Source: Patescibacteria group bacterium (GTDB lineage Bacteria; Patescibacteriota; Minisyncoccia; Ryanbacterales; GWA2-47-10b). From it: a stretch of 64,000 nucleotides of DNA. Under the pieces are notes generated by a model. That model worked only from the letters and a program-made list of their open reading frames with translations, was not told where the DNA came from and did no database searches. Positions within the stretch are counted from its first letter, which is position 1. Every line of letters starts with the position of its first letter. The translations under genes and the position numbers were made by a program. Location of the stretch: positions 26,145 through 90,144 of the forward strand of contig JBBTQY010000001.1 in NCBI GenBank assembly GCA_038065475.1, read 5' to 3'. Positions 13,886 to 31,211 of the stretch are shown in pieces.

Positions 13886-13890
13886 TATTC

Positions 13891-14619
13891 TTAGAATTTC
13901 CAGGCCTCCGAACGTTTTAAGGGAAAGGTGCGCCGATCACTATTGATAACGGTTTCAGCACGCTGAATGTCTTCCGGTGTTGATAGTGGATGCCAAAAAC
14001 TCGACGGCACCGCCATAATCTTTTTAGTTGCAAGCATTTGCCCAACAGCATGGGAAAGAAAATACTCACCAGTAGCGCTATGTACCTCGGGTGCGTAGTC
14101 AAAAACAGAATAATCGAGCAGCAAAACTCCCGTACTCACCATATTTGTTTTTGGATACAACGGTTTTTCTTCAATATCTCTAATATGGCCTGCGCGATCA
14201 ACTTCAACTACACCGTATGGGCGAGGATCATCGACCTCAGCAACTAAAAGAGCTCTATCATATTTTAAACACTCTTTAAATCCATCTGCTCCATGCAAAT
14301 CGTCGGCGAAGACAACAAAAAAGCGCTCGCCAGGCGACAAAAGATGCTTGGTCTTTTCTAGGGCTTTATATGTACCCTTGATCTCATCATCGCCCACATA
14401 GGTGACACGACGCCCCAAAAAATAATCTCCACAATATTCACGAATCATATCGCCGAGATATCCGACAACGATAACCAACTCATCCACCTGGCGTGGGAGC
14501 TGAGAAACCACATGCTCAATAAGGGCCCTTTTATTTACTTCGACAAGCGGCTTGGGCCTTTCAAGAGTTAAGGGGCGCATACGCGTCCCCTTGCCTGCCG
14601 CCAGAATAATTGCTTTCAT
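13891..14619 (-). CDS. sugar-phosphate nucleotidyltransferase (RmlA/GalU-like)
   Basis: MKAIILAAGKGTRMRPLTLERPKPLV is the canonical NTP-transferase N-terminus. Short (242-aa) form. Confidence 0.8.
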   Translation of the reverse strand: MKAIILAAGKGTRMRPLTLERPKPLVEVNKRALIEHVVSQLPRQVDELVIVVGYLGDMIREYCGDYFLGRRVTYVGDDEIKGTYKALEKTKHLLSPGERFFVVFADDLHGADGFKECLKYDRALLVAEVDDPRPYGVVEVDRAGHIRDIEEKPLYPKTNMVSTGVLLLDYSVFDYAPEVHSATGEYFLSHAVGQMLATKKIMAVPSSFWHPLSTPEDIQRAETVINSDRRTFPLKRSEAWKF

Positions 14620-14629
14620 GTTCGATCAA

Positions 14630-15505
14630 TCAAAACGGAATAGCCTTATAATCATCAAACGACACATCCATAAAATCCGTACGGATGCCCGCATACCCCT
14701 CTTTGACGATTGGGCTTACTCCGTACTTTGATCCTGTATCTTTTGCTTCCAATACTAGCGTCCAAGTGCCAGTTTTGCCTTTATCCATAAAAAGCTTTAT
14801 CGCGACACTGCCATCAGCATTATTTTGCGATTCACTGCGAAGGCCTATCCAAACATTTTTTGGCAATAAATTTGGATTTGTATCTCGATTATAGATGCCT
14901 GGAAATATTTTTTTATAGGCAATCGTGTGGTAAGTGCCATTTTGCTTCTTTTTGATAACCGCCGCTCCATCAACACGAGTACCTACGTAATACAGGTTAT
15001 TACCATCTTGATAGCGATTAAAAAGAAGAAGACCATTAGACGCGTCACGATTTGGGCTTTTACTCAGATTGTCTTTGTTGATCTTAAAATATGCTTCCTG
15101 CTTAAAATTGCCCCATTTGGAACGCGTTAACAAACGAAAAATGTTTTGCGGATGATACCCATTATCTGTATCGACAGGATTGGAGCTACTATAAATAAGA
15201 CGCCACTTATCAATAATGGATAAATTACCATCTATAGTTTTTCCAACTCCATCAACAATATGTAAGTAAGCACCGGAATTTAACCACCAATACGGACTAG
15301 AACTATAATCCATCTGCCCACTCTCCACTAATTTGCCGGGAACATTAAAAGTATAAACAAAATTAGAAGTAATAATCGCTGACGGTGTCTTTAACTCTGC
15401 AGCTGACAGTAAAGCTAAGCCCAATGTATTATCAAAATAATACTGACTAATGCCCGCAAGAATAAAAGATATTAACAATAACAAAATAAAAATTGGTCTT
15501 TTCAT
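14630..15505 (-). CDS. secreted hypothetical protein in the EPS operon
   Basis: Signal peptide. 291 aa, β-rich and Asn/Tyr-rich. 4-bp overlap with the deacetylase gene. AT-rich. Confidence 0.5.
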   Translation of the reverse strand: MKRPIFILLLLISFILAGISQYYFDNTLGLALLSAAELKTPSAIITSNFVYTFNVPGKLVESGQMDYSSSPYWWLNSGAYLHIVDGVGKTIDGNLSIIDKWRLIYSSSNPVDTDNGYHPQNIFRLLTRSKWGNFKQEAYFKINKDNLSKSPNRDASNGLLLFNRYQDGNNLYYVGTRVDGAAVIKKKQNGTYHTIAYKKIFPGIYNRDTNPNLLPKNVWIGLRSESQNNADGSVAIKLFMDKGKTGTWTLVLEAKDTGSKYGVSPIVKEGYAGIRTDFMDVSFDDYKAIPF

Positions 15506-17118
15506 AGTAATTTCTCAACAATTAATTGATTAACGATCACCTCGCTGTTGTTTTCAACAGGATCCCATACTTTAAACCCTATACCACCGCGATCTAAAGA
15601 GGAATCCAAGGAATCTACAGACAAAAGCTCTTCGCCATCAATAAAGCACTTTATGGTGTTCTTGTGAACGGACAACTCGAAGGTGGCATTATCCCAAGAA
15701 AAATTCTGATCTATGGAAGTTTCGGCGATCTTCTTTCTTTCTCCGTTTATAGATTCATCTATACGAATAAAACGTCCAGAGACATTACAAGAAGTAAAAT
15801 TTTTACTATCTTTATATCGCGCGACCAGAGATAGCGATTCTCCTCTCGTCCAATCAATTAATGCCTTCAAATGATAATTTTCCCAATTACGCGTACCGTC
15901 TAAAACAACAGCAGCACCCGTTGTTTTTTCTCCTGCGCGCAAAACTAGCGAAGAATTCTTTAATCCTATGTTTCCCCATTCCTTTATCCATTCCTCATTA
16001 AGAGAAAAATCATAAATATGTAAAGGTATTTCTTTAGACCGCCCCGCATTCAATACCCTTAATAAGTCTGCATCTGTCCATGCTCCTCCAACATCTATAC
16101 GCTTAACTAAAAAAGTATTGTCGTCAAAATAATTTTGAGTAAAACCAGCACTAGGATATGTTTGGAAAAATGCTAAATCATAATTATCTTTAACTGAATT
16201 GAGCAAAACCCTTTGGGCCTCGGGATAATTTGTTATATTTTGGGCAAAGTCACCATAAGGAAAAGCGAAAGAAACAGAAGCTATATCCAAAACTCTCTCA
16301 ATTTTTTCCTTAACTAAGCTTATATCATGCCCGATACGTTGCTCATATTCATCATCTGTCTCTAATCTTCCAAGCTCTTTCAACCAAAGTTTATTAGTAT
16401 AATAGTGTCCCTGTTCGCCGTTTATAGAGATTGATTGAAAAACATGGCCACTATCGGCATGTGCTTGAATCTCCCAACGTCCACTGCGCTTCATCGCCCG
16501 TAGTTCATTAGCATTTAGATAATAAGAACTTTTTCTATCACTATCAGTCAACGAATGGCCACTGATAATAAAAGTGACAGCATTATAATCCAATGCTCTC
16601 AAAATGGGATCGACTGGGTAGTAACTTGACTTCGCTCCATCATCAAACGTTAATAAAAATGATTTATTCGGTAGGGTCTTTTCACCCTTAACGAAGGAGT
16701 TAAAATCCTCGACACTTATAGTTTTCCAGCCAGCTTGTTTGAGCGCAAACATCTGAGCCTCAAAATTCGTTTTCGTAATATTTTCTCCATCAGGGATGTC
16801 TACAAGGCCGTGGTAAAGAAGCACGGGTACAGACTCCGCGGTACCCGTAACAACGACGTTTTCTACTGTTGATCTATTTGAGAATATTCTCGCTAGACTG
16901 CCGAGCATATCATTCTCCGCATAAGCCAATTTTGCAGCATAAAAGCCATAAGCTGCAGTTTCTTTGCTATCCAAAATCATTCCGTCGGTAAATTGGGATA
17001 AACTCTCCCTAATGAACAAGAAGGCATAACTGCCACAAAAAAGTAATATAGCAATTACGGTAACTCGCAAAACCTTTAATCTTGAAAAATCTAAATATTT
17101 CATTATCGAGTTCCCCAT
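15502..17118 (-). CDS. polysaccharide deacetylase (CE4/NodB-domain) with C-terminal β-rich domain, membrane anchored
   Basis: N-terminal TM. NodB-type motifs (LLTFDDGAKS, …HADSGH). A ~250-aa C-terminal extension gives a PgaB-like overall layout. Confidence 0.75.
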   Translation of the reverse strand: MGNSIMKYLDFSRLKVLRVTVIAILLFCGSYAFLFIRESLSQFTDGMILDSKETAAYGFYAAKLAYAENDMLGSLARIFSNRSTVENVVVTGTAESVPVLLYHGLVDIPDGENITKTNFEAQMFALKQAGWKTISVEDFNSFVKGEKTLPNKSFLLTFDDGAKSSYYPVDPILRALDYNAVTFIISGHSLTDSDRKSSYYLNANELRAMKRSGRWEIQAHADSGHVFQSISINGEQGHYYTNKLWLKELGRLETDDEYEQRIGHDISLVKEKIERVLDIASVSFAFPYGDFAQNITNYPEAQRVLLNSVKDNYDLAFFQTYPSAGFTQNYFDDNTFLVKRIDVGGAWTDADLLRVLNAGRSKEIPLHIYDFSLNEEWIKEWGNIGLKNSSLVLRAGEKTTGAAVVLDGTRNWENYHLKALIDWTRGESLSLVARYKDSKNFTSCNVSGRFIRIDESINGERKKIAETSIDQNFSWDNATFELSVHKNTIKCFIDGEELLSVDSLDSSLDRGGIGFKVWDPVENNSEVIVNQLIVEKLL

Positions 17119-18389
17119 CTAGAATCGCGAATAGTTATCATCGCCCAAGGCAGTTGCCACATAAGCATCACTGTATAAAACCAAAAAGTCATCACGGACA
17201 AAAACCAAGCACGCGGACCCACTTGAGTACGATAATAAATCCCGTGCAATAATAACATTAAGAATAAACCAGCCAAATAGGCGAGAGGAATGCTTCCTGT
17301 CAAATACGGATGCCAAATAACAGCCCTTATAAAAACAATGGGCGCACTAAGGGCAAGAATGACATAGGAATAATACGATAGAGCAGCAAAAAAATTTTTA
17401 CGCCACATAAACGCGCTGGCAATTAGCGTCTCTCTAATCCAAGATTTTTTCCATCTCTGCTGCTGTTTAATATATTTACCAAGCGTATCTGGCACAACTG
17501 TGTGCGCCTTTGCTTCTGGAGAATAAACAGCTTCATATTTTCGAATAATAAAATTTGTTAAACTTCTGTCATCACCGAATGTACACTCACTTCCTAAGAA
17601 CCTCTGATTTAGCCAAACGTCAATAAACTCGAGTAAATACTCTCTACGATATGCAGAACAACAGCCGGGACAGCAAGTTACATTACCAAAAACGGATTCA
17701 GCTGCCTTATAAACACTAAAAGCGATAAAATATCTTGTGGCCTGCATCTGTGTTAAAAGATTTGTATCTCTATTAAAAACATCTGTATGCCCAGAGACAG
17801 CTCCAACTCTCGGATTAGAAAAATATTTTACAAGATGCTTGACACAATCAGGGGCAATAAAACTATCCGAATCAATAAATATAACTATTTCATGGTTTGC
17901 CCTTCTTACCCCTTCTGCCATACCTGCTCTTTTACCGCGATTAACTTTCCAATTAACAACGGTAACTGGTATTTCTTGACCTATCTCCTTTTTAATTTTC
18001 AACATCTCAGCATAGGTACTATCTGTTGAGCCATCATTAATAGCAATAATTTCTATTTTTTCTTTAGGATAATCCGCATGCAAAAAGCGCCTAATCGTCT
18101 CAGCAACATTATCTTCTTCGTTTTTTGCTGGAACAACAAAAGTGATTGAAGGCTGATAGCCCTCATCATGCTTAATAGATCTATGGAAATATGCAAGAAA
18201 AAATCTTGAAATAATATAAATAAAAATTAAAATACTATAGAATTTAAAAAAGGTTACCCCCCCGACAAAGCTAGTCGTGCTAATTTTAAATAAAAGTATC
18301 AAATAGAGCACAACAAAAAAAAGAAACCAAAAACCAAAATCACTAAATACTGCGAGCCTTTTTTTAATTTTATTAAAAATTTTTGCCAT
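17103..18389 (-). CDS. processive family-2 glycosyltransferase (PgaC/HasA/cellulose-synthase-like synthase)
   Basis: Two N-terminal TMs, then a GT-A domain with DGSTD and DSDS motifs and QQQRWKKSW (QxxRW), then C-terminal TM helices. Confidence 0.8.
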   Translation of the reverse strand: MAKIFNKIKKRLAVFSDFGFWFLFFVVLYLILLFKISTTSFVGGVTFFKFYSILIFIYIISRFFLAYFHRSIKHDEGYQPSITFVVPAKNEEDNVAETIRRFLHADYPKEKIEIIAINDGSTDSTYAEMLKIKKEIGQEIPVTVVNWKVNRGKRAGMAEGVRRANHEIVIFIDSDSFIAPDCVKHLVKYFSNPRVGAVSGHTDVFNRDTNLLTQMQATRYFIAFSVYKAAESVFGNVTCCPGCCSAYRREYLLEFIDVWLNQRFLGSECTFGDDRSLTNFIIRKYEAVYSPEAKAHTVVPDTLGKYIKQQQRWKKSWIRETLIASAFMWRKNFFAALSYYSYVILALSAPIVFIRAVIWHPYLTGSIPLAYLAGLFLMLLLHGIYYRTQVGPRAWFLSVMTFWFYTVMLMWQLPWAMITIRDSRWGTR

Positions 18390-18391
18390 AC

Positions 18392-19690
18392 CTATCGCCC
18401 TATACCATTGTAGATAATATTGGAGTCCAAAAATATATCTTTTTCTAGACAGTTACGCCCGTCTACAATTGTTCTGACTCCATATTTTTTTAGATCATCA
18501 GGAGTAAGTTTCTTGAAAATGCTATGTGCGGTGGCGACGATAACACCGATTGATCCCTGTAAGGCTTCCTCTAAAGTTTTTACATCTGAACGATCAAGTA
18601 CAAATGGATCATAGGCAACCACCTCTGCTCCAAACTCTTTCAAAATTTTAATAATCTCAAACGATGGGCTCTCGCGACAATCATCAATATCTGCCTTATA
18701 TGAAAGTCCCAATACAGCTATGCGTGACCCATTGATAGCAATCTTCTTTTCATTGAGTCCTGCGATCAATTGCTCAACGGCGAAATGGGGCATGCCGTTG
18801 TTTATACGGCGAGCGAGCGCCAAAAAATCATGATCGAAACCATTCTTTTTTGCATACTCAATAAGATAATACGGATCAACAGGTATACAGTGTCCGCCTA
18901 CACCGCAGCCTGGATAGTGAGGCATAAAAGCAAAGGGCTTGGTGGCTGCGCCATCAATTACATTTACTACATCAATGCCGAGGCGTGAGAATGACCGCGC
19001 GAGTTCGTTTACAAATGCAATATTGATATCTCGAAAAGAATTCTCAACAACTTTAACTGCCTCTGCCTCTTTGAGGTTTCCCATCGGCTTTACCGTGCCA
19101 GTCAAAATTGATTCATAAAATGCCACGGCCTTTTTGAGTCCTGCCTCATCAAAGCTGCCAACAACGCGCGGTATATTTTCCACGTTCCATTTTTTATCAC
19201 CCGGATTGATACGCTCAGGACAGTGTGCCAAAGAAAAATCTTTACCACACTCCATGCCGGAGATTGATTCGAGTATCGGTAATACCACGCTCTCTGAAAC
19301 TCCCGGGTTCACTGTTGACTCTAAGATAACTAAGGTATCTTTTTGAAGATACGGAGCAATCGAGCGCACGGCATTTTCCACCGGCTCAAGATTTGGCATA
19401 TGATTTTCATACACCGGTGTTGGTACGCAAATAATCACAATGCCGCAATCTTTAACTACAGAGAAATCATGGGTGGGTGTAAATGAAACTTCCTGCAAAG
19501 CCTGCTCAATCGCCTCATCCTGTATTGGGGATTTCTTTTGTTTTAAGAGCTCTATCTTCTGCTGGCTGACATCTATGCCAAAAACCTCATAGCCCTTGCG
19601 GGCCGCAAGCAAAACAAGCGGAAGACCCACATACCCAAGGCCTACAACCGCTATTTTTTCCTTATCTGGTAATGTTTTTTTGGCCTCCAT
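18392..19690 (-). CDS. nucleotide-sugar dehydrogenase (UDP-glucose / UDP-N-acetylhexosamine 6-dehydrogenase family)
   Basis: N-terminal Rossmann motif IAVVGLGYVGLPLV, central catalytic Cys region, and a C-terminal UDP-binding domain. Confidence 0.85.
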   Translation of the reverse strand: MEAKKTLPDKEKIAVVGLGYVGLPLVLLAARKGYEVFGIDVSQQKIELLKQKKSPIQDEAIEQALQEVSFTPTHDFSVVKDCGIVIICVPTPVYENHMPNLEPVENAVRSIAPYLQKDTLVILESTVNPGVSESVVLPILESISGMECGKDFSLAHCPERINPGDKKWNVENIPRVVGSFDEAGLKKAVAFYESILTGTVKPMGNLKEAEAVKVVENSFRDINIAFVNELARSFSRLGIDVVNVIDGAATKPFAFMPHYPGCGVGGHCIPVDPYYLIEYAKKNGFDHDFLALARRINNGMPHFAVEQLIAGLNEKKIAINGSRIAVLGLSYKADIDDCRESPSFEIIKILKEFGAEVVAYDPFVLDRSDVKTLEEALQGSIGVIVATAHSIFKKLTPDDLKKYGVRTIVDGRNCLEKDIFLDSNIIYNGIGR

Positions 19691-19955: not shown

Positions 19956-22900
19956 TTAGAGTTGTGTAATGCTGGCGGCGTTATTTACCCACTGATAGAG
20001 CCCTGTCCAGTTGAGTTTAATAACGCCAACCGCTACGCGATAGGTGCCTGGGCCTGGCGGCGTAAATTCATAGTTAAACACACGAGACTCACCTGCTTGC
20101 AAGGTTTCGCCATTGTAAAATTCTTGGAATACTTGCGTGCCTCCAGCGTCGTACACTTCAAGATTGAGTACTACATGACCGGGTTGAGTGCCGGTATTTT
20201 GAAGGGTCACATCGATATCACGCATACCGGACGCTCCAGTGACCACTGTACTCGCGTGTGTGGGCACAAAATCGGTCATCGGCGTGGTAGATCCGCCCAA
20301 TGACCATGCAGGGTCATTTACATCAACATCCGCCGTTGAACCAAATCGCCCATGGTGACCACTATTTGATCGATCGATAATATCTTGCCCGAAGTTTTCA
20401 TTGAACTTCCAGTATTTGATAAGACCAATCTGAGAGCCGATAAGAGGTTGACCGAGCGTCGCCAAAATATCATCATCTGCACGCACAATATTCCAAACAC
20501 GCATATCCTCGAGAACACCTTTAAATCCCCTTGCGGAATGATCCGCAGGATTGCCGCCGATCACCACAGGAGCTGACGTTTGTGCGATATTGCCCGTTTT
20601 CGGCACCGTTGCGACCACCGCTCCATTTTTATAGAGCCGCATCGCAGCACCGTCATAGCGCGCAGCAATGTGCGTAGTCTCGTTGAGTCCAAATGAACCG
20701 CCAACAAGTTTTGTGACTACACCGTCAGTATTAAGCCTAAAAACAAATTGATTTTGATCATTCACCCCGATAGACCAAACATAATCATTGTCAGTAATAC
20801 CTGTAGCCTTCGCGAGTAGGTCTGCGTTGCGACCAAGCTCTGACGCCTTAAACTCGGCCTCGAAAGTAAAGGTGGGCTCTTCTACGTCCCACACTCCGAT
20901 ATCGACATAATCATTTACACCGTCAAAAACGAGCGCGCCATCGTTATTCGTTGGTATAACAGAAGGTACACTCGCGCAATCGCCAAACCCCTCTGCTGGA
21001 TAACTAAAGATAGCCGTATTATCACCCCACTTATTTTTGACCCATGATGCAGGTCCGGGTGTTTCAAACGATGGATTCTTTACAAGATTGGAAGTATCAT
21101 TACCCTCCTTGCGTACATAAAACTGATCAACAGTTAATGAGCCGACACCATCAATAATATGGAAAAAAGTAACCGTACCTGTATTTGGGGGCGTCAGTAT
21201 AGATGCAGTGGCATCTTGCCATGTTGCTGCGGCGGGCAAAGTACCAAGCCCTCGATATTGTACCGATCCGTCATGCATTCTAAGCACCGCAACAATACGC
21301 GTTGGTACAGTTGCCTTATATTTATCTGAAAAATAATAAGTTAAATCTGATGCAACTACTAACGGCTCGTGATACCACTTGGCATCACCAGTCACATATT
21401 CAGTGATCTCAACTTTCGCTCCACGAACGGTGCAGGCTTCTATTTTTTCATATTCAAAGTTAACGAGTGCAGCGTATGCATTTTCATAGTATTCAAGCTT
21501 CATCGTATGGATTCCGGGTGTCATTTGATGAGTAACAGTATAAGTTGTCGCTGCCTGATCATGCCACTCATCTATGACAAGAACATCATCAACATAAAGC
21601 CGCACACCATCGTCAGCTGTTACAGTAAATTGATAAGTTGCGTCTTCAAAGTCTGCTTGCTTTATCCAGCGCGCTGAGAACCGGTCTGGTTGGATAAGTG
21701 CATGCGGAGAATTAAGCCCCCAATCAAAATTGATCGAGGCATCTTGCTGTACAACGCTCGGAGCTCCGCTCAGATTTATGTTATTGAAATATGATGCGCA
21801 AAATTCATCAGCACCGACGACACCCGATACCGGATAAGAAAAAGTTACCGTATTATCGCCCCAACTATTCTGAGCCCAGTTATCTGATCCTCCCTCTTCA
21901 AATGACCAATCGCTAATAAGATTATTTTCTTGATCTGATATATCGTAAAGTTCATAAGCATCCACTTCCAAAAACCCTACAGATCGAATGAGATGAAAAA
22001 TAGAAATACGTTGAGCATCCTCGGGTACAAAAAACGTTTTTTCGTTTTTTGTCCAGGTGTCAGACGGCGCCACTTCTCCTAACCAGCGGTACAAAAACGT
22101 TCCGTTGGTCAGACGGATTTGCAAAATTAAAGTTGAGGAAACATCTGATCGAGAGTAATTAGAAAAATTATATAATCCAGCGCCTGGCACAACATCTACC
22201 TCTTTCATGCGCCACTTGGCGTCACCGGACGTATATGCCGACATATCAATGCGAGCTGCCTTCGCGCTACAAATATCTTTCTTGGCATACGCAAGTTTTG
22301 CGACCGCCGCAAAACCATTTTCATAATATTCCATACGAATAGTATGGAGCCCCGGAGTGATTGAGCGCTCAACGGTATGAGCTGTCGCTGCTTGATCGTG
22401 CCATTCATCTATGATAGCGACATCGTCAATAAAGAGGCGCACGCCATCATCAGCATTTACCGTGAACTCATATAGCCCTCCATCAAAATTTTCTTGTCGC
22501 GTCCAACGAGCAGAAAAATGGTCATCAGGAATTACAGGATTCGGTGAACCAAGCCCCCAATCAAAATTGATCGAGGCATCACTACGCGTAAGAGCTGGCG
22601 TACCTATCGGCGTTTGAGTATTATAATACTCGCCGATAAAACCATTCGAAGCATCAACTAATCCTATATTAATACTTTTCTTCACAGAAAGACCTTGGGA
22701 ATCTGTTGCTGTTAAAGCAAGCTCGAAATATGTATCACTACCATGATCAGGAACGACGAAGCTACCAGACTCGCCCGTCATATCTAATAGAGGATGGTTA
22801 TGACACGTGCCAAACGGACAATGATGAACAATAACCACCCACTGAAGACTGCCCCCAGCAAGGGCACCGTCCTCAAGGTCACTGGCGGATCCGGAAAAAT

Positions 22901-24497
22901 TCAATGTATCACCTTGATGTACTGATGTTCCGTCAGTTGGAGCGATGATTGTCGCTGTAGGCTGATGATTGCCTGGCTGAATCTGCACAGAAGCCGAACC
23001 GGCTGCATTAAAGCTATCGGTGACAGTTAATGTTACGTTAAATATGCCAGCTGTCGTATATGTATATGTTGGATTTGCCTCTTCAGAGGTTGCCCCGTTA
23101 CCAAAATCCCAATGATAACTAATAGTATTTCCATCTTGGTCGGAAGATCCAGCGCTTGAAAAATGTACAGTCATTGGTACAGAGCCGCCTACTGCATCGG
23201 TAGAAATTTTTGCTGTGGGGGCATGATTATCGCTCGAGTAACGCACGCGCACAATCTCATCAGGATAAATAGAAACATAATAAAGATGCCCATCCGGCCC
23301 CATGGTGATATCCACCGGTGTTGCAACCTGCTGACTAAAAATCTTGTTACTATCAGGAACAAGGTTATTTAAATCGTCCAACCTTAAGGTACGCATTTCA
23401 TTGCGGCCGTAATCACTGAAAAAGAAAGAGCCCTGATACTCAGCCGGGAACTCTGTACCGGTATAAAAAGTACCACCAACTACCGCAGCTCCCGGCGGAT
23501 GATTATACGTATAGAGAGGTTTTGTATCTCCGCCTGCCGCATAAAAATCTTGGCACGCACCCATAAAATGATACCCCTCCTGCTGCTCGTCTCCCTCCCA
23601 ACATGGCCATCCATAATTGCCACCTGGAGTAATAACGTTGATTTCTTCAATAGCCGACCAGCCAACATCGCCTACAACAAGAGTGTTCGTACCAGGCTTA
23701 ATATTAAAACGGTATGGATTGCGAAACCCATATGCCCATACTTTTGAGCGATTTTCGTTTGGATCGCCAGTATAAAAAGGGTTTGATTCAATACCGGTGC
23801 CGTCTGTATTAATGTGTAAAATTTTACCCGCCAAACTATCAAGGTTTTGGGTACGCAACGCAAGCGGATCTACTGTCGTGAATGACGAGGCGTCACCTGA
23901 ACTGACAAAAAGAGTACCATCATCGGCAACCCGAACAGATCCAATAGTATGGCTTGGGGAGTCGCTCGGAATACAATCAGCACCTACGGGAAGATCTTCG
24001 CAAGACGCGGCACTAGCCGTCCCTAAGATGATCGTTTCACTGCCAGGTAGAGCAACATCGCCATCAGCGACAACACGAGAAAGACGACTTGTTTTAGTGC
24101 CAGTGTAATCATCGGGATTATTTTCATAAGTATAGAGTAGATAAATAAAATGGTTCGTCTCAAAGTCCTTATCAAAGGCAAGATCAAGTAAACCACGATC
24201 ATTATAATCATTGACGTGTGAGAGAGTGATAAATGGCGTAGGTAAAACAACACCATCCTTTACAACTTTCACCACTCCTCCCTTTTCCACCACAAACATT
24301 CGGCCATCGGGAGCAAAGCGTGTCGCTACGGGCAAATTAAAACCAGAGGCTACAGACTCAAGGTAAAAACCTGCTGGCAAATCAGTTGCCGCAGCACCCC
24401 ACGATACGGGGATGAAATGCCAAACACTCAAGGCTAAAAAAAGCCCGAGAACTATAGATATTTTTACTTTTATGGATTTCGTTTTCATGCTTAGCAT
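19956..24497 (-). CDS. giant secreted multidomain surface protein: GSDH-like β-propeller + PKD + 2×(PA14 + β-sandwich) + LamG/ConA-like + CARDB-like
   Basis: Signal peptide MKTKSIKVKISIVLGLFLALSV. GSDH motifs (VASGFNLPVATRFAPDGRMFVVEKGG). PKD domain (…YHWDFGNGATS…). Two PA14 domains (…DHFSARWTRQ…DDGVRLFIDDV and …DRFSARWIKQ…DDGVRLYVDDV). LamG-like and CARDB-like C-terminus. The ORF track extends to 24593, but the signal peptide begins at the internal Met (24488/24497), which also removes the overlap with the upstream GT39 gene. Confidence 0.8.
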   Translation of the reverse strand: MLSMKTKSIKVKISIVLGLFLALSVWHFIPVSWGAAATDLPAGFYLESVASGFNLPVATRFAPDGRMFVVEKGGVVKVVKDGVVLPTPFITLSHVNDYNDRGLLDLAFDKDFETNHFIYLLYTYENNPDDYTGTKTSRLSRVVADGDVALPGSETIILGTASAASCEDLPVGADCIPSDSPSHTIGSVRVADDGTLFVSSGDASSFTTVDPLALRTQNLDSLAGKILHINTDGTGIESNPFYTGDPNENRSKVWAYGFRNPYRFNIKPGTNTLVVGDVGWSAIEEINVITPGGNYGWPCWEGDEQQEGYHFMGACQDFYAAGGDTKPLYTYNHPPGAAVVGGTFYTGTEFPAEYQGSFFFSDYGRNEMRTLRLDDLNNLVPDSNKIFSQQVATPVDITMGPDGHLYYVSIYPDEIVRVRYSSDNHAPTAKISTDAVGGSVPMTVHFSSAGSSDQDGNTISYHWDFGNGATSEEANPTYTYTTAGIFNVTLTVTDSFNAAGSASVQIQPGNHQPTATIIAPTDGTSVHQGDTLNFSGSASDLEDGALAGGSLQWVVIVHHCPFGTCHNHPLLDMTGESGSFVVPDHGSDTYFELALTATDSQGLSVKKSINIGLVDASNGFIGEYYNTQTPIGTPALTRSDASINFDWGLGSPNPVIPDDHFSARWTRQENFDGGLYEFTVNADDGVRLFIDDVAIIDEWHDQAATAHTVERSITPGLHTIRMEYYENGFAAVAKLAYAKKDICSAKAARIDMSAYTSGDAKWRMKEVDVVPGAGLYNFSNYSRSDVSSTLILQIRLTNGTFLYRWLGEVAPSDTWTKNEKTFFVPEDAQRISIFHLIRSVGFLEVDAYELYDISDQENNLISDWSFEEGGSDNWAQNSWGDNTVTFSYPVSGVVGADEFCASYFNNINLSGAPSVVQQDASINFDWGLNSPHALIQPDRFSARWIKQADFEDATYQFTVTADDGVRLYVDDVLVIDEWHDQAATTYTVTHQMTPGIHTMKLEYYENAYAALVNFEYEKIEACTVRGAKVEITEYVTGDAKWYHEPLVVASDLTYYFSDKYKATVPTRIVAVLRMHDGSVQYRGLGTLPAAATWQDATASILTPPNTGTVTFFHIIDGVGSLTVDQFYVRKEGNDTSNLVKNPSFETPGPASWVKNKWGDNTAIFSYPAEGFGDCASVPSVIPTNNDGALVFDGVNDYVDIGVWDVEEPTFTFEAEFKASELGRNADLLAKATGITDNDYVWSIGVNDQNQFVFRLNTDGVVTKLVGGSFGLNETTHIAARYDGAAMRLYKNGAVVATVPKTGNIAQTSAPVVIGGNPADHSARGFKGVLEDMRVWNIVRADDDILATLGQPLIGSQIGLIKYWKFNENFGQDIIDRSNSGHHGRFGSTADVDVNDPAWSLGGSTTPMTDFVPTHASTVVTGASGMRDIDVTLQNTGTQPGHVVLNLEVYDAGGTQVFQEFYNGETLQAGESRVFNYEFTPPGPGTYRVAVGVIKLNWTGLYQWVNNAASITQL

Positions 24498-24531
24498 TAC
24501 TAGGATATTCTTAGCACACAACAAGCCCCCA

Positions 24532-26133
24532 TTACAAAGCCTCGGGCACCGTGAGATCGCTGTTTTGATTACAGCCAAGTGTAGCTGCGACACGCTGCGA
24601 CTTGTCTCGAAGCTTATAAATCTTCACATCTTGATACGAATACACGCAATCAAACTCGCTCGCCAACCACTCACCGCTACGAAATCGCTCATCAATACGA
24701 TCTTTTTCTCTTAACACGGCCCAATCAACCGCGCGCTCAGGCGCCTCTAGTGCGGCGCCGAAAAGCTTGGGATCGCCCACATGCACCCAATACTTGAAAG
24801 GAATACGACTTGCAAAAGGCACAGCATCATTATTAAAAATATCGACCAAGATTAAACCGTGATCGTAATTATCTTGCAACCACTCACCCGCTTCCAGTCG
24901 ACTTTCATTGGCGTGCGCTCCGGCAAAACCATCAACAGCCTCATGCAGAGTTATAATATTATTACTAAGCAACATAACACCGTACTCAATAAAAATTACA
25001 ACGAGCATAAAGATACCAACCTTTTGAAATCGCGCCCCGATAACACCGACAAGGATGGCAAAAAATGGCACAAACATAAGTGCGTAGCGAACATTAAATA
25101 TAAGATACGGTGCTAGTTGGGGAACAAAGATAACGGCATTACCGCCAAATATATTGAGAATATAGTAAACGATGTGAACACCTATCAAGAGAACAAAAAG
25201 ATATCTTAATTGTTTATGCTTTAAGATTTGCCACACAATATATATGAGCCCGAAAATGCTAAAAATAATTAAGAACCATCCTGAGACCATTTGCGCCGCA
25301 TACCATATGTGAGCCAGGGTATTTTCAAGGTCGCCACGCGAGGGTAAGAAGCCGGCAGCTGCGAGTGACTCTTGTTGACCCTTCGAAGAATACTCCCCTA
25401 CTGCAAAATAAAATGGGTTATCAAAAATTGCATAATTCCAAGTAAGCCATAGAACGGGGCCGAGGAACGCAAGAGACGCAAATAAAATAATGGTTGCCTC
25501 AACCTTTTTAGAATCTCGAGAAGTAAGATATAAATAGAGAGCAACAACACATACCGTTGCGATAGCAAAAATCCAACCATCATAACGCGATAGCGTCGCG
25601 AATAAAAACGCTACGCCACTGGCGACCAAATAAATATCTTTAAGAGAACGTGCCCACAGCAAAGCATACATTAGAGCACCGAGCATGGCAGCTATATAAA
25701 ACATCTCTGACAAAGGCGTAGCCTGCATATAAAGCGTATTGGGATTTAGCATAAAGATAAGAGCTGCCAAACCCCCAGCAATCGGTCCTGCCAAAGTCTC
25801 TCCAATTTTGAAAAGAAACCATGAAGCAAGAATGTAAGCGAGCATCGAGAAAAAAATACCAGCAAACCCCGAATAGTAGAGAAAATCTATCCAGATAAAC
25901 GGCAGCATAACAAGGCTTGGTGCAGGCAACCATACATATCCCAATTGAGAAAATCCCGGAGACGTGCCGTCGACCACACGTCGCGACAAATTTAATCGAG
26001 CGGTGGCATCACCGCTAGCATTAGCGAGATCAAGATACATTACTAAAGCCGTCACGACCAAGCTCAAGAAAATAGCTAGAGCTAAAACAAAATATTTTAT
26101 ATATGGTTTATATTTTTCGATCATAGCAATCAT
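24532..26133 (-). CDS. GT39/PMT_2-family membrane glycosyltransferase (protein O-mannosyltransferase / ArnT-like)
   Basis: 533 aa with ~12 TM helices and the loop/TM layout of the PMT_2/ArnT superfamily. 4-bp overlap with the upstream GT2. Confidence 0.65.
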   Translation of the reverse strand: MIAMIEKYKPYIKYFVLALAIFLSLVVTALVMYLDLANASGDATARLNLSRRVVDGTSPGFSQLGYVWLPAPSLVMLPFIWIDFLYYSGFAGIFFSMLAYILASWFLFKIGETLAGPIAGGLAALIFMLNPNTLYMQATPLSEMFYIAAMLGALMYALLWARSLKDIYLVASGVAFLFATLSRYDGWIFAIATVCVVALYLYLTSRDSKKVEATIILFASLAFLGPVLWLTWNYAIFDNPFYFAVGEYSSKGQQESLAAAGFLPSRGDLENTLAHIWYAAQMVSGWFLIIFSIFGLIYIVWQILKHKQLRYLFVLLIGVHIVYYILNIFGGNAVIFVPQLAPYLIFNVRYALMFVPFFAILVGVIGARFQKVGIFMLVVIFIEYGVMLLSNNIITLHEAVDGFAGAHANESRLEAGEWLQDNYDHGLILVDIFNNDAVPFASRIPFKYWVHVGDPKLFGAALEAPERAVDWAVLREKDRIDERFRSGEWLASEFDCVYSYQDVKIYKLRDKSQRVAATLGCNQNSDLTVPEAL

Positions 26134-27704
26134 TCTAATACTCTCTGCTCACGTAAATGGCTCCCGTGACGCGTCTTCTCCCAAGTGTGTGGGCTACTGA
26201 TCATCTGTAAAACGGCGCGCATAGTGGCAACGGCCAAAAGCATCCAATAGAGCGGGGTCAGCAAAACATATTTTAATAGGGCGTAACGTTTGCGACGATA
26301 AACAGCTAAAAGATTCATATACATGAAAACAAAGTTTCCTACCAAAAAAGAAAAAATAGAGAAATAAAGTATCAGAGGAGGATAGAGTCTCTGGATAAAA
26401 GCAGCTTCGGTGGTGAACCAAATAAATTGAGTGATCCAAGATAAAAAATTGAGCAAGTTAAGAACAATTGTCCCCGGTACAATATATAAAAATGCAAAAA
26501 AGTTAATCCAGCCGCCTATCTCTTTTTTAAAACGAAAAGGATGTCGTAAATGTACAATGCTTGTCTGTATAAAACCCTTCATCCAACGAGTACGCTGCGG
26601 AATCCAAGAATCGAGAGTACTCGTAGCCTCTTCTAAGCTCGCACTATTAAGCATACCAACCTGGTAACCTTTACGATGAAGGCGCATACCGATATCGCAA
26701 TCTTCCGTAACATTGTATGGGTCCCAGGCGCCTATCGCTTTTAATGCCTCCATACGAAAGTGAGTGCTATGTCCAGATAATGGTATTGGAAAGCCTAGCT
26801 TTTGAAGACCTGGCAAAAATAAATCGTAGTAAAAAGCAAATTCTGCGTTAAAAAGCCTAGTGAGAATATTTTGATCAGCATTGTAATGATCAAGCCTTAC
26901 CTGGAGCGCTCCAACATCTGGATATTTTCCAAAAGCAAGAATAGCTTTTTTAAGCTGATCAGCATCCGGAATAATTTCTGCGTCATAAATAACAACATAC
27001 TCCCCCTTGGCCTGGTGCAAGGCAACATTAAGTGCCTTTGGTTTTGTCTTTGGCTTTACATTGGGCAAGATGAGAACACGAAAATTGTCCGGAGGATTTA
27101 TAGCTTTAATAGCATCGTGGGTGGCTTTATCATATTCTTCGAGAGTGATAATAAACTCGAGTTTTTCTTTAGGATAATCAATAGCTTTCATTGCACGCAC
27201 AATCTGCGGGATCACTTCGGCTTCATTTAAGAGCGGAATAAAAACAGTATAAAAAGGTAAATCATCTGTAAGCTCGGCTATTTCTTTCTTTGAGAAATCA
27301 ATGAGCGGATAATGCGAACCCTTATAGACTACCCAGAGCTTAAAAATAACGAAAGTAAAATAGAAGAGCGCTATCAATCCGGACAAGATAGCAAGAAATG
27401 AAAGATTAAGTGCTAGGTGCAAAAAAATTATAAAAAACGCAAACAGTACGGTAACGAATGCGCCCGCAGCGACAGTTTCATGATATACATGTTTTTTTGC
27501 GCTATGAATCTCCGGAAGAAACAGAAAATCGCCAGAATTATCAAAATCATGACCTCTAGCTTCTGAATGATGGGGATGATCTAAAAATTTGAATACAAAG
27601 AAAAACCAGACGCGCACCGTGCGCAATAAAGCCAATATAAAACCAGAAACCTCGTCCAAGACCGAGGAAATGAGAGGCTTAACTATTTTTACCATTCTTT
27701 CCAT
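26130..27704 (-). CDS. family-2 glycosyltransferase with QxxRW motif and flanking TM bundles
   Basis: GT-A core (YDAE, TED) with QRTRWMKG. Hydrophobic N- and C-terminal segments. Confidence 0.75.
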   Translation of the reverse strand: MERMVKIVKPLISSVLDEVSGFILALLRTVRVWFFFVFKFLDHPHHSEARGHDFDNSGDFLFLPEIHSAKKHVYHETVAAGAFVTVLFAFFIIFLHLALNLSFLAILSGLIALFYFTFVIFKLWVVYKGSHYPLIDFSKKEIAELTDDLPFYTVFIPLLNEAEVIPQIVRAMKAIDYPKEKLEFIITLEEYDKATHDAIKAINPPDNFRVLILPNVKPKTKPKALNVALHQAKGEYVVIYDAEIIPDADQLKKAILAFGKYPDVGALQVRLDHYNADQNILTRLFNAEFAFYYDLFLPGLQKLGFPIPLSGHSTHFRMEALKAIGAWDPYNVTEDCDIGMRLHRKGYQVGMLNSASLEEATSTLDSWIPQRTRWMKGFIQTSIVHLRHPFRFKKEIGGWINFFAFLYIVPGTIVLNLLNFLSWITQFIWFTTEAAFIQRLYPPLILYFSIFSFLVGNFVFMYMNLLAVYRRKRYALLKYVLLTPLYWMLLAVATMRAVLQMISSPHTWEKTRHGSHLREQRVLE

Positions 27705-27821
27705 ATATGTAGCCGTCTAGACATTCGTACAACATATTAATTAAATTGTCAATACTCCTTTAAGAAAAAAGCGAGGTAGCCGATGCTACCTCGCTGATGA
27801 TGAGACGCCTTCCAAGCCCTC

Positions 27822-28400
27822 TTACTGGGCCCAGCAAAACGCCTTGCAATAGTTGAACCTTGCTCGGCATTGCTTGATGGACACTCCGAGCGAAGCGCAC
27901 AAGCCCCTGGTGCAGGGGCGCTCACCGACTATCGGGTCGCAGATCTGCTCGCAGCAGTTCACCTCGGGCGGGCACTGCCCGCAGTACTGGCCGACGCATG
28001 TGCGCCAGACCTGATTGACGTAGCGCAGCGTGCACCCGTTTTGTCCGTACATGCCGACGCCGATACCGTGGTTACCATCCTGAGCGGTGAAGGACACCTC
28101 GAAGGTGTCGGACGTGAGTGCGCCGAGGACAACGTCGGAGTAAGGCTGATGCTCGATCCTGACGCCGTCTCGGAAGACGTCGAGTACGATCGTGACCGGC
28201 ACGTTGGGTGCGAGCGTCACATTCGTGATCTCGGCCGAGCAGTTGACCGGCTGACCTGCCGTCGGATTGTCCGGCACGCAGGTCGTCTGGATGTGGGCCA
28301 GCGGTGAAGTGGCCGGGCACTCGGCCGTCGCATGCGCATCCTCGGTGAAAACGGCGCAAAGCACGGCGAGAGCGATGATCGTTGCGGTAATGAACTTCAT
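27822..28400 (-). CDS. secreted Cys-rich protein (paralog 1)
   Basis: Signal peptide. Cys-rich C-terminal tail ending …CKAFCWAQ. GC-rich with a strong SD (AGGGAG). Paralog of 28426..29019. Confidence 0.55.
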   Translation of the reverse strand: MKFITATIIALAVLCAVFTEDAHATAECPATSPLAHIQTTCVPDNPTAGQPVNCSAEITNVTLAPNVPVTIVLDVFRDGVRIEHQPYSDVVLGALTSDTFEVSFTAQDGNHGIGVGMYGQNGCTLRYVNQVWRTCVGQYCGQCPPEVNCCEQICDPIVGERPCTRGLCASLGVSIKQCRARFNYCKAFCWAQ

Positions 28401-28425: not shown

Positions 28426-29019
28426 CTACTGCCAGTAGCCGCAGGTTTCTTTGCATTCCTTGAGAAGGGCGGCGCACTTCGAACTGTTCTTCTTCTGCCA
28501 GACGCACTGACCGTACGCCTTCATGTTGGTCATGTTCTCGTAGGCCTTGCACTCGTCTGAGCACGCAGGCGCTGGCGGCGCCTCACACGCCAACTCCTTC
28601 ACATCGAGAACGGCGACCTCATTCCATGCGTAGTTGGGACACCAACCGACACCGTACAGACCGAGGCGAGCAAAGTGCTTGCCCGCGGGCAGTACACATT
28701 GGAACTCGAGGATCTTGATCTCGTCCTGATCGAACCAGACCCCCTCGTTCTGCACCTTGCATGAGGTCTCGCCGCCATTATAGAAAACTTCGAGTAGCAC
28801 GACGAAGTCCGCGCCCACTCCGCGGTTCTCGATCCACGCCTTGCAGACCGACACATCGCCCGCACTTGCGGGGACGCACTCGGTCCGGTGATGCTGGAGC
28901 GGCGAGCAAAGCGCATCACCACAGGTCGCGCTGGCGAAGGAGGCGAACACGCCGAAGATGAGTGCCGCCAGCAACGAAACTGCTGACCGGACCCAGCGCC
29001 CTCTCTTGATTCTTTTCAT
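28426..29019 (-). CDS. secreted Cys-rich protein (paralog 2)
   Basis: Signal peptide. Colinear with paralog 1 (TECVP/TTCVP, GLYGVGWCP/GMYGQNGCT) and ends …CKETCGYWQ. GC-rich. Confidence 0.55.
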   Translation of the reverse strand: MKRIKRGRWVRSAVSLLAALIFGVFASFASATCGDALCSPLQHHRTECVPASAGDVSVCKAWIENRGVGADFVVLLEVFYNGGETSCKVQNEGVWFDQDEIKILEFQCVLPAGKHFARLGLYGVGWCPNYAWNEVAVLDVKELACEAPPAPACSDECKAYENMTNMKAYGQCVWQKKNSSKCAALLKECKETCGYWQ

Positions 29020-29195
29020 AGCGTCACCCCAAATTGTTACAGAATATCTCTGTAACGCCCGAATCGTCGGGTCCGCGGTTATGAGTTAGAGTAGAATATA
29101 TTGTCAACGAACGTATTAATGAATATCAAGAAATCGTCGTTTTGTCAATAATTTATCTGGCGCAGTTTTTAAAAATCCTACATACTAAGATACAT

Positions 29196-29984
29196 ATGCA
29201 AAGCTATTTTATCGCAACGCTTTTAGGACTCATACAGGGGTTTACTGAATTTCTTCCCGTCTCCTCTACTGGGCATCTCATCGTTTTTGAAAACTTTTTT
29301 GGCATTGCCGCCTCAGATGCCGTGCCGTTTGATGTAGCGGTACACTTGGCCACCGTACTTGCCGTCATCTGGTACTTTCGTGCCGATTGGATACATCTGG
29401 TCAAATCATTTACTTCACGCATTGATACGCGCGGTAGGCAGCTGTTGCTAAATATTATTTTGGGTACGATACCTGCGGGTATTGCGGGTATTTTATTTGA
29501 AGAAACCATCACCAATACTTTTCGCACACAAATGGCGGTCGCCATAGGACTGATTGCGGGTAGCGCACTCATTGCTGGCGCCGAATATATGCGCCATCGC
29601 AAAAATCGCGACAGCGGCATGATCTTGCCCTATGAGGGCTTTATCATTGGTATTTTTCAGGCGATCGCTCTCTTTCCAGGCATTTCGCGCTCAGGGGCGA
29701 CTATCTCTGGTGGATTGCTCTTGGGTAAAACGCGCACCGAAGCTACTCATTTTTCTTTTTTGCTCTCAACGCCCATCATTTTGGCGGCGGGCCTCAGAAC
29801 GCTTGCCAGCAAACCTGAAATCATCATCACAGGCCCCAATATTTTTGGATTTATCGCCGCGTTTATCTCTGCTATTGCCGCCATCAATCTCATCAGCCGC
29901 ATTGCCGAGCGCTCAACACTCATGCCGTTCGTCTACTATCGCCTCGCACTCGCGGGGGTGATTATTCTCTCCTTGACTTTTTAG
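29196..29984 (+). CDS. uppP: undecaprenyl-diphosphatase
   Basis: GFTEFLPVSSTGHL signature plus the second conserved PGISRSGATI region. I start at the internal Met at 29196 rather than the ORF-track start at 29142. Confidence 0.85.
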   Translation: MQSYFIATLLGLIQGFTEFLPVSSTGHLIVFENFFGIAASDAVPFDVAVHLATVLAVIWYFRADWIHLVKSFTSRIDTRGRQLLLNIILGTIPAGIAGILFEETITNTFRTQMAVAIGLIAGSALIAGAEYMRHRKNRDSGMILPYEGFIIGIFQAIALFPGISRSGATISGGLLLGKTRTEATHFSFLLSTPIILAAGLRTLASKPEIIITGPNIFGFIAAFISAIAAINLISRIAERSTLMPFVYYRLALAGVIILSLTF

Positions 29985-30570: not shown

Positions 30571-30603
30571 CCTCGCCACGAACCGTGGCGAGGGCTTTTT
30601 TAT
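30571..30603 (+). terminator. rho-independent terminator (bidirectional; overlaps the DedA stop)
   Basis: Hairpin cctcgccacgaaccgtggcgagg followed by a TTTTTTAT run. Confidence 0.55.
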
Positions 30604-31211
30604 TTATTTCGTTTTTTATGCGCCAAATACTCGCGCCCTATGTGAAATACACCCGGCAGCATTGAGATAGTAATGATGACTAAAATAATTGGCAGTAGAT
30701 ACTGATCGACACCGGGTACAAATGCACCCAAGAAATACCCGAGAAGCGGCATGCCAATAGCCCACAACACTGCGCCGACAACATTGTAAAACAAAAAAGT
30801 TGGGTAATGCATATGGCCCACGCCCGCAACAATGGGCGCAAACGTACGAATCACGGGCGTGAAGCGCGCAAGCACCAAGGTCTTGGGCCCATGCTCTTTG
30901 AAAAATGCCTCGGCACGACGCACATGATCTTTGTGAAAGAAAATAGAATCTTCTTTTTTGAAAATGTGCGGCCCCACTCGCCTGCCAAACGCATAGCCTA
31001 CGTTGTCACCCAAGATTGCCGCTGAAAACACAAGCGGCACCAGAAACCAGATATTGAGAAAATCTTGCGAGGCCAAAAATCCTGCGGTAAAGAGCAATGA
31101 ATCACCTGGTAGAAAAAAACCTATGAAGAGGCCTGATTCGGCAAAGACAATAAAAAACAAACCGATATATCCGGCTGTCTTGATTAAAAATACAGGCTCG
31201 AGAAAACTCAT
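30600..31211 (-). CDS. DedA/VTT-domain family membrane protein
   Basis: …FAESGLFIGFFLPGDSLLFTAG… is the characteristic DedA motif. Confidence 0.8.
   Translation of the reverse strand: MSFLEPVFLIKTAGYIGLFFIVFAESGLFIGFFLPGDSLLFTAGFLASQDFLNIWFLVPLVFSAAILGDNVGYAFGRRVGPHIFKKEDSIFFHKDHVRRAEAFFKEHGPKTLVLARFTPVIRTFAPIVAGVGHMHYPTFLFYNVVGAVLWAIGMPLLGYFLGAFVPGVDQYLLPIILVIITISMLPGVFHIGREYLAHKKRNK

Follow-up and report, generated by a model that had tools for sequence, protein, structure and literature searches.

The 64-kb stretch of DNA analysed here (hereafter the window) belongs to a bacterium of the Patescibacteria, or candidate phyla radiation (CPR), and carries on its minus strand three linked genes encoding, in the order of transcription, a membrane-embedded family 2 glycosyltransferase (GT2a), a glycosyltransferase with a predicted GT-C fold (hereafter GT-C) and a giant secreted multidomain protein (Table 1). 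The window derives from a 347-kb contig from the 0.1-μm filter fraction of Hainich groundwater (ENA ERZ1292624), and its closest named relatives are Candidatus Ryanbacteria and metagenome-assembled genomes (MAGs) labelled 'Patescibacteria group'. Patescibacteria live as ultrasmall episymbionts, and their surface glycans and cell envelope have hardly been studied.

A reading of this DNA made earlier without database searches (hereafter the sequence-only reading) had described the three genes as tightly linked, which the open reading frame (ORF) coordinates bear out: the GT2a stop and the GT-C start share an ATGA, giving the 4-bp overlap that it reported. The gap between GT-C and the giant gene is short, as it also stated, although the quoted 35 nt should be 34 nt from the Met at 24497 or 43 nt from the Met at 24488. 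It was right that the GTG at 24593, which opens the longest giant ORF, would overlap the GT-C gene by 62 nt, and the two Met codons at which it placed the signal peptide both stand ahead of a single hydrophobic segment (aa 7-34, ...SWG/AAATD); they are also the very starts chosen in public gene calls, yielding 1513 aa and, in P0188, 1510 aa. The strong terminator-like hairpin upstream and a 265-nt AT-rich spacer with a weak hairpin 3' of the giant gene make the three genes look like one transcription unit in this genome, and in relatives the giant gene is contiguous with the next glycan genes, only 47-75 nt away. A TTGACA box (27747-27752) lies between the hairpin and GT2a and was read as a promoter by eye only; a σ70 promoter scan gave no excess over shuffled expectation. 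Scans of the 64-kb window for tRNAs and Rfam families were empty.

Analysis of GT2a placed it in the BcsA/PgaC/HAS class of synthases. The protein carries the motifs DAE241, TED333 and QRTRW370, the last of which had been recognized from the sequence alone, and among 120 homologues QxxRW is kept in 119 and TED in 83. Pfam assigns Glyco_tranf_2_3 and Glyco_trans_2_3, the best NCBIfam models are PgaC/IcaA (5.9e-26, residues 113-503) and BcsA (6e-21), and the best solved relatives are BcsA chains, which align over residues 104-506 including the transmembrane (TM) helices (1.5e-16). Hydrophobic segments at 19-41, 75-128, 396-424, 442-468 and 475-499 flank the catalytic domain. The equivalog cut-offs were missed for PgaC (91.3 vs 422.3 bits), BcsA (74.1 vs 992) and NodC (23 vs 550). 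Dpm1/GtrB-type enzymes have a short GT-A domain with a C-terminal anchor and lack QxxRW, and a sequence search against solved structures found no match of GT2a to GtrB (5ekp), DPMS (5mlz) or ArnC at E<=0.01, a meaningful null because the identical search detects all three for the neighbouring GT2b. Comparison of topology and motifs with cellulose synthases and with Ppm1/GtrB thus sides with the BcsA/PgaC class, and the BcsA/PgaC matches, the D,D,D,QxxRW signature and the lack of GtrB likeness argue against the lipid-linked sugar donor synthase of Ppm1/GtrB type that had been proposed.

The GT2a family is CPR-wide, with 3691 matches at E<1e-10. The best 120 of these come from Parcubacteria-type lineages, Saccharibacteria, Peribacteria and others; they are 53-82% identical to the query, placing the family among the better conserved membrane enzymes of CPR bacteria, and one third of them have an extra N-terminal GT2 domain. 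Judged by sequence, GT2a is a synthase-class GT2 that forms a CPR-wide family of its own and is not the ortholog of a named synthase.

For the second gene, sequence matches were sparse and the assignment came from structure. In the window protein PMT_2 fell below threshold (22.1 vs a cut-off of 26.1 bits), and a Pfam scan gave no match to PF02366, PMT_4TMC or MIR; across 40 family members PMT_2 was found in 19 and PF02366, at 1e-3, in two. Searches of PDB sequences with the single sequence and with a 40-sequence profile returned no match, so a fold search was needed. An AlphaFold2 model built from the 40-sequence alignment (predicted local distance difference test (pLDDT) score 93.9, predicted template modelling score 0.92) retrieved STT3, AglB and ArnT in Foldseek at 1e-7 to 1e-6, whereas protein O-mannosyltransferases (PMTs) appeared only at 3e-3 over ~267 columns and were not the nearest structural neighbours. 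On the strength of this model we are confident that the second gene product is a GT-C fold glycosyltransferase; such enzymes use polyprenyl-phosphate-linked donors and act on the outer face of the membrane.

The sequence of loop 1 bears on which GT-C family this is. Asp42 is invariant in the family and lies directly after TM1 at the start of this first extracytoplasmic loop, where enzymes of the OST/ArnT/PMT/ALG group have an acidic residue, together with invariant Q63, G65, W68, L69, P70, N130, E143, R183, Y184, W187, N347 and R349 elsewhere. The PMT/GT39 family is defined by an Asp-Glu (DE) motif in the first luminal loop; loop 1 here reads 'SGD42ATARL', an Asp without an adjacent Glu and hence no DE motif. 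Therefore, of the 12-TM GT39/PMT_2 assignment made initially, the approximately 12 TM helices stand, and the GT39/PMT identity does not, given the lack of PF02366, the lack of DE and the Foldseek ranking. GT-C is not assignable to GT39/PMT, since oligosaccharyltransferases (OSTs) and ArnT are as close or closer. Identity as an OST was also considered and rejected, because there is neither a WWDYG/WWDxG motif nor a DK/MI motif in the C-terminal domain.

The GT-C family is large: a profile search of 1.84 billion cluster representatives found 1560 clusters (at 50% identity) at E<=1e-30 and 3454 at E<=1e-10, and GTDB species genomes contain at least 590 loci. Beyond the generic PMT_2, we found no curated Pfam or NCBIfam model specific to this family. 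By their titles nearly all loci are from Patescibacteria or from ~1-Mb MAGs with a dubious 'Gammaproteobacteria' label, plus a few from Chloroflexi. The records titled 'uncultured Gammaproteobacteria' (L014, L016, L017 and others) are probably mislabelled; the L014 chromosome is only ~0.94 Mb.

Functional coupling of GT2a and GT-C is strongly supported by their arrangement in other genomes. GT2a directly precedes GT-C in relatives with GT-C identities of 74% (L004), 50% (L005/L095), 44% (L007), 34% (L008) and 30% (L094), and at 74% and 50% identity all three genes are conserved as a unit. We surveyed the neighbourhoods of 80 GT-C loci in GTDB genomes, 67 of which had enough upstream sequence, and found in 43 of the 67 a GT2a-family gene on the same strand that was either adjacent (nine loci) or high-scoring and 2-10 kb upstream (34 loci). 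Furthermore, among the 149 best GT-C representatives, 12 carry GT2a (N-terminal) and GT-C (C-terminal) on one polypeptide. Gene-calling artefacts were considered and rejected as unlikely for these fusions because they fall into 12 separate clusters at 50% identity and have linkers of ~30-150 residues. Additional fusions among the representatives join GT-C to the families called A3 and A2 below (A3-GT-C and GT-C-A2) and to a polysaccharide deacetylase (GT-C-deacetylase), and other GT-C proteins are fused to a C-terminal LysM (P0008) or to a GH5 cellulase (P0043). These fusions, together with neighbours such as GH8, point to a glycan or cell-wall context for GT-C rather than to a protein acceptor.

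In distant loci the usual triad is A3, GT-C and A2, with A3 directly upstream in 59 of the 80 loci, A2 directly downstream in 58, and both flanking GT-C in 50; neither A2 nor A3 is present in the window. The A3 family (~530 aa) is probably a second GT-C, as suggested by weak cross-matches of the family hidden Markov models (HMMs) at 1e-13 and by PMT_2 matches in eight of 54 members; hhalign of one A3 neighbour against GT-C was not significant. A2 is a secreted ~420-aa protein of which only the CarboxypepD_reg domain matched the PDB, and a TIM-barrel glycosidase as its N-terminal domain is at most a tentative reading, coming from an impression of the consensus and two weak Glyco_hydro_cc matches among 58 proteins. 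In many cases the upstream GT2a-family gene encodes a protein of 1300-1570 aa that joins GT2, GT2a, a ~10-TM domain and GT4. The ~10-TM domain, with about 10 hydrophobic segments, has only a sub-threshold Polysacc_synt match, and phmmer detected no match between this Wzx-like domain and bona fide Wzx. Such mega-fusions, in which the GT2 part is soluble, occur in L014 (89-4798) and about 30 similar loci; in L014 the order that follows is GT2, deacetylase, methyltransferase, GT4, A3, GT-C and A2. The L014-type arrangement is a CPR-wide conserved glycan cluster.

The giant protein has one N-terminal hydrophobic segment that serves as a signal peptide, and it lacks a sortase signal, a C-terminal anchor and Ser/Thr/Pro-rich linkers (at most 8 Ser/Thr per 20-residue window). 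The GSDH, PKD, two PA14 and LamG domains named in the sequence-only reading all exceed Pfam thresholds: GSDH (PF07995) scores 172.5 bits against a cut-off of 25, PKD_4 71.5 bits (6e-20), PA14 109.8 bits over two stretches (1.3e-31) and Laminin_G_3 72.9 bits (4.1e-20). The GSDH propeller aligns with E. coli YliI (2g8s, 1e-23), PaeASD (3a9g, 2.6e-18) and sGDH, and it keeps the general-base His ('SHTIGSVRV' vs 'IHNGGRIRF' of PaeASD 3a9g); the equivalog model TIGR03606 gives only 87 bits against a cut-off of 434. The β-sandwich that had been described after each PA14 is predicted by an AlphaFold2 model (pLDDT 69.9, core 75-91) to be a β-jelly-roll close to solved carbohydrate-binding modules (CBM4/22-like). 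The internal duplication of this PA14 module also held up, at 42% identity over 272 aa (E 5e-84) and with the bounds given in Table 1 rather than at the ~50% first estimated. At the C terminus, where a CARDB-like domain had been called, every match was below its cut-off (Wzt_C 4.4e-5, 23.9 vs 30.4 bits; CARDB 0.012, 16.2 vs 22.7; FxLYD 21.2 vs 23), which gives the CARDB-like call weak support; an Ig-like β-sandwich of this general kind is likely.

The combination of PA14, LamG and GSDH had been thought unusual, yet proteins of 1300-1450 aa with GSDH, PKD and a varying number of PA14 domains are abundant (1262 matches) and common in Patescibacteria, Chloroflexi, Micromonospora and Dactylosporangium. 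Beyond two near-identical proteins, the 118 giant homologues listed are 28-58% identical over the PA14 region. Such proteins, annotated as 'glucose/arabinose dehydrogenase, beta-propeller fold' in Actinobacteria, Chloroflexi and CPR bacteria, share the N-terminal architecture and size of the giant, to which the window clade adds the jelly-roll after each PA14, LamG and the C-terminal Ig-like domain; only LamG and the PA14 plus jelly-roll module are specific to this clade. Our literature searches found no characterised member, and these widespread giants merit characterisation as polysaccharide-locus proteins.

The link of the giant to the gene pair is narrower than that between GT2a and GT-C. 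Only where GT-C identity is at least 50% does the giant come after the pair, and in that clade its gene is sandwiched on one strand between two synthase gene sets. A PA14, GSDH or LamG protein lies within 10 kb of GT-C in only ~6 of 80 loci; PA14-containing proteins recur near GT-C genes in L008, L034, L042, L071 and L092. Elsewhere the slot after GT-C is held by GH8 (L094) or, in most loci, by A2, and GH5 or A2 is sometimes fused to GT-C. In all three contexts that were looked up, giant homologues stood among polysaccharide-related genes, which belonged to several types of pathway: a Micromonospora locus with GT2, ABC-2 transporter, PIG-L and methyltransferase; a CPR-like synthase locus (L092) with the same GT-C family, a cellulose-synthase-like GT2, GH81, A2 and sortase; and a Wzx/Wzy locus. 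The Wzx/Wzy and ABC-2 loci contain no GT2a-GT-C pair.

The operon sits inside a ~19-kb glycan island that also holds a hyaluronan-synthase-like locus, the downstream glycan genes of Table 1. There Ugd is a UDP-glucose dehydrogenase, and the best solved match of GT2b is hyaluronan synthase (2.4e-34). The layout resembles hasABC and cps3DSU, and the genes suggest a glucuronic acid-containing, partly deacetylated polymer as the product. In the 74% relative the deacetylase after GT2b is fused to the N- and C-terminal domains of heparinase II/III in a protein of 1110 aa (L004:13162-15150), which fits a glycosaminoglycan-like product. GC content is 0.38-0.40 at 14-20 kb of the window, against about 0.47-0.53 elsewhere. 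A GH5 cellulase-like gene ~10 kb beyond GH6 gives this very small genome two β-glucanase-type genes.

On the other side of the operon, the two Cys-rich paralogues have no Pfam match, contain an Ig/CARDB-like central segment and are conserved in L004. The BacA/UppP and DedA/VTT genes, between whose outer bounds unannotated ORFs also lie, are both conserved in L004, L005 and L095. DedA proteins have been described as undecaprenyl-phosphate flippases (PMC12893004). A VTT+PAP2 fusion (L094:1969-3249) lies near an independent GT2a-GT-C-GH8 trio. Because BacA/DedA-type genes are absent from most GT-C loci, the link to carrier-lipid recycling is only suggestive.

Table 1. Positions of the operon, the domains of the giant protein and neighbouring features in the window
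Feature	Position	Strand	Description
GT2a gene	26130-27704	-	524 aa; membrane-embedded GT2, BcsA/PgaC/HAS synthase class
GT-C gene	24532-26133	-	533 aa; ~12 TM; C-terminal extracytoplasmic domain of ~130 aa
Giant-protein gene	19956-24497	-	1513 aa; alternative start 24488; longest ORF 19956-24593
GSDH-type six-bladed β-propeller	23274-24338	-	aa 54-408; Pfam GSDH 1.9e-50
PKD, then Ig-like Big_7-type domain	22662-23228	-	aa 424-504 and aa 505-612
Repeat module 1	21849-22664	-	aa 612-883; PA14 + jelly-roll CBM-like β-sandwich
Repeat module 2	21015-21824	-	aa 892-1161; PA14 + jelly-roll CBM-like β-sandwich
LamG/concanavalin A-like domain	20466-20924	-	aa 1192-1344; Laminin_G_3
C-terminal domain, likely Ig-like β-sandwich	19959-20300	-	aa 1400-1513; sub-threshold Wzt_C, CARDB, FxLYD
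Intrinsic-terminator-like hairpin	27770-27795	-	11-bp stem, 7 GC, T-run; ends upstream genes, just ahead of GT2a
Downstream glycan genes	12653-19690	-	Ugd, GT2b, polysaccharide deacetylase (538 aa), 291-aa protein without annotation, sugar-1-P nucleotidyltransferase, GH6
GH5 cellulase-like gene	2005-3009	-	334 aa
Two paralogous Cys-rich signal-peptide proteins	27822-28400, 28426-29019	-	192 and 197 aa; directly upstream of the operon
BacA/UppP	29142-29984	+	Beside the operon; candidate carrier-lipid recycling
DedA/VTT protein	30600-31211	-	Beside the operon; candidate carrier-lipid recycling
Stand-alone GSDH-like protein	53148-54365	-	405 aa; ~1 kb from the ABC-2 permease gene
ABC-2 type transporter permease	55373-56146	-	One unannotated ORF between it and the stand-alone GSDH gene

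Comparison with known systems revealed partial parallels to several of them. Like BcsA and PgaC/IcaA, GT2a is a membrane GT2 of the D,D,D,QxxRW class with TM helices on both sides, BcsA being its best solved-structure match. As in bcsA-bcsB-bcsZ, the synthase has an obligate membrane partner, to which it is in some cases fused (GT-C here, BcsB in the BcsAB fusions that exist), and a secreted glycan-active protein can come next in the operon (GH8 in L094, BcsZ in bcs). In contrast, the second gene here encodes a GT-C glycosyltransferase and not BcsB, GT2a lacks a PilZ domain and scores far under the BcsA and PgaC equivalog cut-offs, and the third gene encodes a lectin/GSDH giant and not a glycosidase. 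In the monoderm Streptomyces, CslA assembles with the extracellular oxidase GlxA into a cellulose synthase complex (PMC11022532), in a system that comprises a cellulose-synthase-like GT2, a required extracellular β-propeller redox protein and a GH6 endoglucanase (PMC11022532, PMC9040799). The window likewise combines GT2a, a GSDH-propeller giant and a GH6 gene, but the CslA-GlxA-CslZ system has no GT-C partner, and the propeller of GlxA, a copper radical oxidase, is of the kelch type and not a GSDH; no sequence homology between GlxA and the giant is claimed.

Adjacent, translationally coupled GT2 and GT-C genes are also found in the GtrB-GtrC, ArnC-ArnT, Ppm1-Pmt and CsbB-YfhO pairs, in which a lipid-linked donor is used by GT-C on the outer side of the membrane. 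In those pairs, however, the GT2 is the short Dpm1/GtrB type rather than a synthase type like GT2a, and no small GtrA-type flippase was found at the locus studied here. The pairing of a synthase-type GT2 with GT-C departs from the textbook GtrB/ArnC/Ppm1 logic. The locus can also be compared with synthase-dependent O-antigen systems that have a ligase and with mycobacterial arabinogalactan, which is made by a processive GT2, the peripheral, cytoplasmic GlfT2, plus the GT-C enzymes Aft/Emb and is exported by an ABC transporter. Within ~10 kb of the operon, none of the scanned ORFs encodes such a transporter; our gene scans covered about 50 of the 64 window ORFs of at least 150 aa, and the only ABC-2 gene among them lies ~28 kb away.

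We propose, with a probability of roughly one half, that the trio is a cell-envelope or exopolysaccharide synthesis-and-handling module and not a protein O-mannosylation system. Its motifs and homology suggest that GT2a would extend a probably β-linked glycan from a nucleotide sugar at the membrane. GT-C would be its extracytoplasmic partner, evidently an obligate one to judge by the 4-bp overlap, the synteny and the natural fusions, and would use a polyprenyl-phosphate-linked sugar or glycan on the outer face to decorate, prime or anchor the GT2a product. The acceptor would most likely not be a protein but a glycan or the cell wall, consistent with the presence of GH6 and GH5 genes in the window. 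The giant, which is secreted and multivalent, may bind the glycan or glycans of the island and possibly oxidise or process them, in a role analogous to that of BcsZ in bcs operons and of GlxA/CslZ alongside CslA in Streptomyces, and it occupies the operon slot held elsewhere by GH8 or the secreted A2.

Several observations weigh against this proposal. The window ORFs that were scanned yielded neither a flippase nor a donor synthase of the GtrB type, which leaves the source of the GT-C donor unexplained unless GT2a supplies it. The mega-fusions of GT2a with other glycosyltransferases and a ~10-TM domain are easier to reconcile with a lipid-linked oligosaccharide that is assembled step by step than with a classical self-translocating synthase. 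The restriction of the giant to the clade with at least 50% GT-C identity would allow for a recent, incidental association with the pair. Finally, CPR bacteria are not known to make pyrroloquinoline quinone (PQQ), and no PQQ synthesis genes were seen among the scanned ORFs, so the GSDH domain may be non-catalytic.

The alternatives differ in what they ask of each protein. In the sequence-only reading, the GT2 makes a lipid-linked donor, GT-C is a PMT-like protein O-glycosyltransferase and the giant, taken to be a surface glycoprotein or adhesin, serves as the substrate dedicated to it. This has its attractions, in that GT-C enzymes need lipid-linked donors and GT2a is the only glycosyltransferase coupled to this one, the giant gene directly follows the pair here (34-nt gap) and in relatives down to 50% identity, and PA14-containing proteins lie near GT-C in the few other loci named above. 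However, we consider it very unlikely, because GT2a has the QxxRW/TED synthase signature without similarity to GtrB, DPMS or ArnC, GT-C lacks PF02366, PMT_4TMC and MIR matches as well as the DE and WWDYG motifs, and the fusion partners of GT-C are glycan-active or wall-binding domains. The role of the giant as substrate in particular is not supported, given its lack of Ser/Thr/Pro-rich linkers, its absence from most GT-C loci (~6 of 80 have a comparable protein), the variable slot after GT-C and its homologues in loci without the pair. The 'PMT plus substrate' interpretation is therefore attractive but unsupported, and is corrected here.

The variable slot could also mean that GT2a and GT-C are a coupled envelope-glycan pair with which an independent giant merely shares a transcript, the giant being directed at a host or substrate, for example as an adhesin for the host of the episymbiont or as a sugar-scavenging oxidoreductase. 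PA14 and LamG are typical of adhesins and lectins, many free-living Actinobacteria and Chloroflexi have members of the GSDH-PKD-PA14 family, and a second, stand-alone GSDH protein is encoded elsewhere in the window. We regard this as unlikely, given that giant homologues stood among polysaccharide genes in each of the three contexts, one of which (L092) has the same GT-C family, and that the giant gene of the window clade lies between two synthase gene sets. A different division of labour, in which a polyprenyl-(pyro)phosphate primer carries the glycan that GT2a assembles and GT-C acts as an OST/WaaL-like en bloc ligase that transfers the finished chain to peptidoglycan, lipid or protein, with BacA/DedA recycling the carrier, would account for the GT2a-GT-C fusions, for BacA and DedA adjoining the operon, for the VTT+PAP2 fusion near the independent trio and for the fusion of GT2a elsewhere to a multi-TM domain with a sub-threshold match to the Polysacc_synt flippase family. 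Nevertheless, BacA and DedA are housekeeping proteins of peptidoglycan synthesis and are missing from most GT-C loci, the structural match is just as good to ArnT, which transfers monosaccharides, and no phosphoglycosyl transferase for priming was found among the window ORFs scanned, making the ligase model quite unlikely.

Under the envelope-glycan proposal, the locus stays within known categories, as a synthase-dependent glycan locus whose GT-C partner is unusual and whose lectin/GSDH giant is specific to the clade. Searches of the literature for CPR GT-C enzymes, for GT2 together with GT-C and for GSDH together with PA14 gave no relevant result, and no description of the pairing or of the families was found in the searchable literature. 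GT2a and GT-C, which cluster time and again and in places are fused, offer a concrete candidate for the machinery behind a CPR envelope polymer. In a more speculative form, which we hold to be rather improbable, the BcsA-class synthase and GT-C, which some CPR lineages have as a fusion, would be one physical machine in which the synthase glycan, via a polyprenyl-phosphate carrier, is moved by GT-C to a wall or envelope acceptor, with the giant as extracellular organiser in this clade. If true, an envelope polymer found across CPR bacteria would be built by a 'synthase plus GT-C ligase/decorator' pathway not described before.

The survey of GT-C neighbourhoods also uncovered a recurring trio of a cellulose-synthase-like GT2 (~495 aa), an HlyD/BSH-like protein and GH81, a β-1,3-glucanase (L010:12131-16421 and L092:3805-7929), suggesting a curdlan-like synthase system in CPR bacteria.

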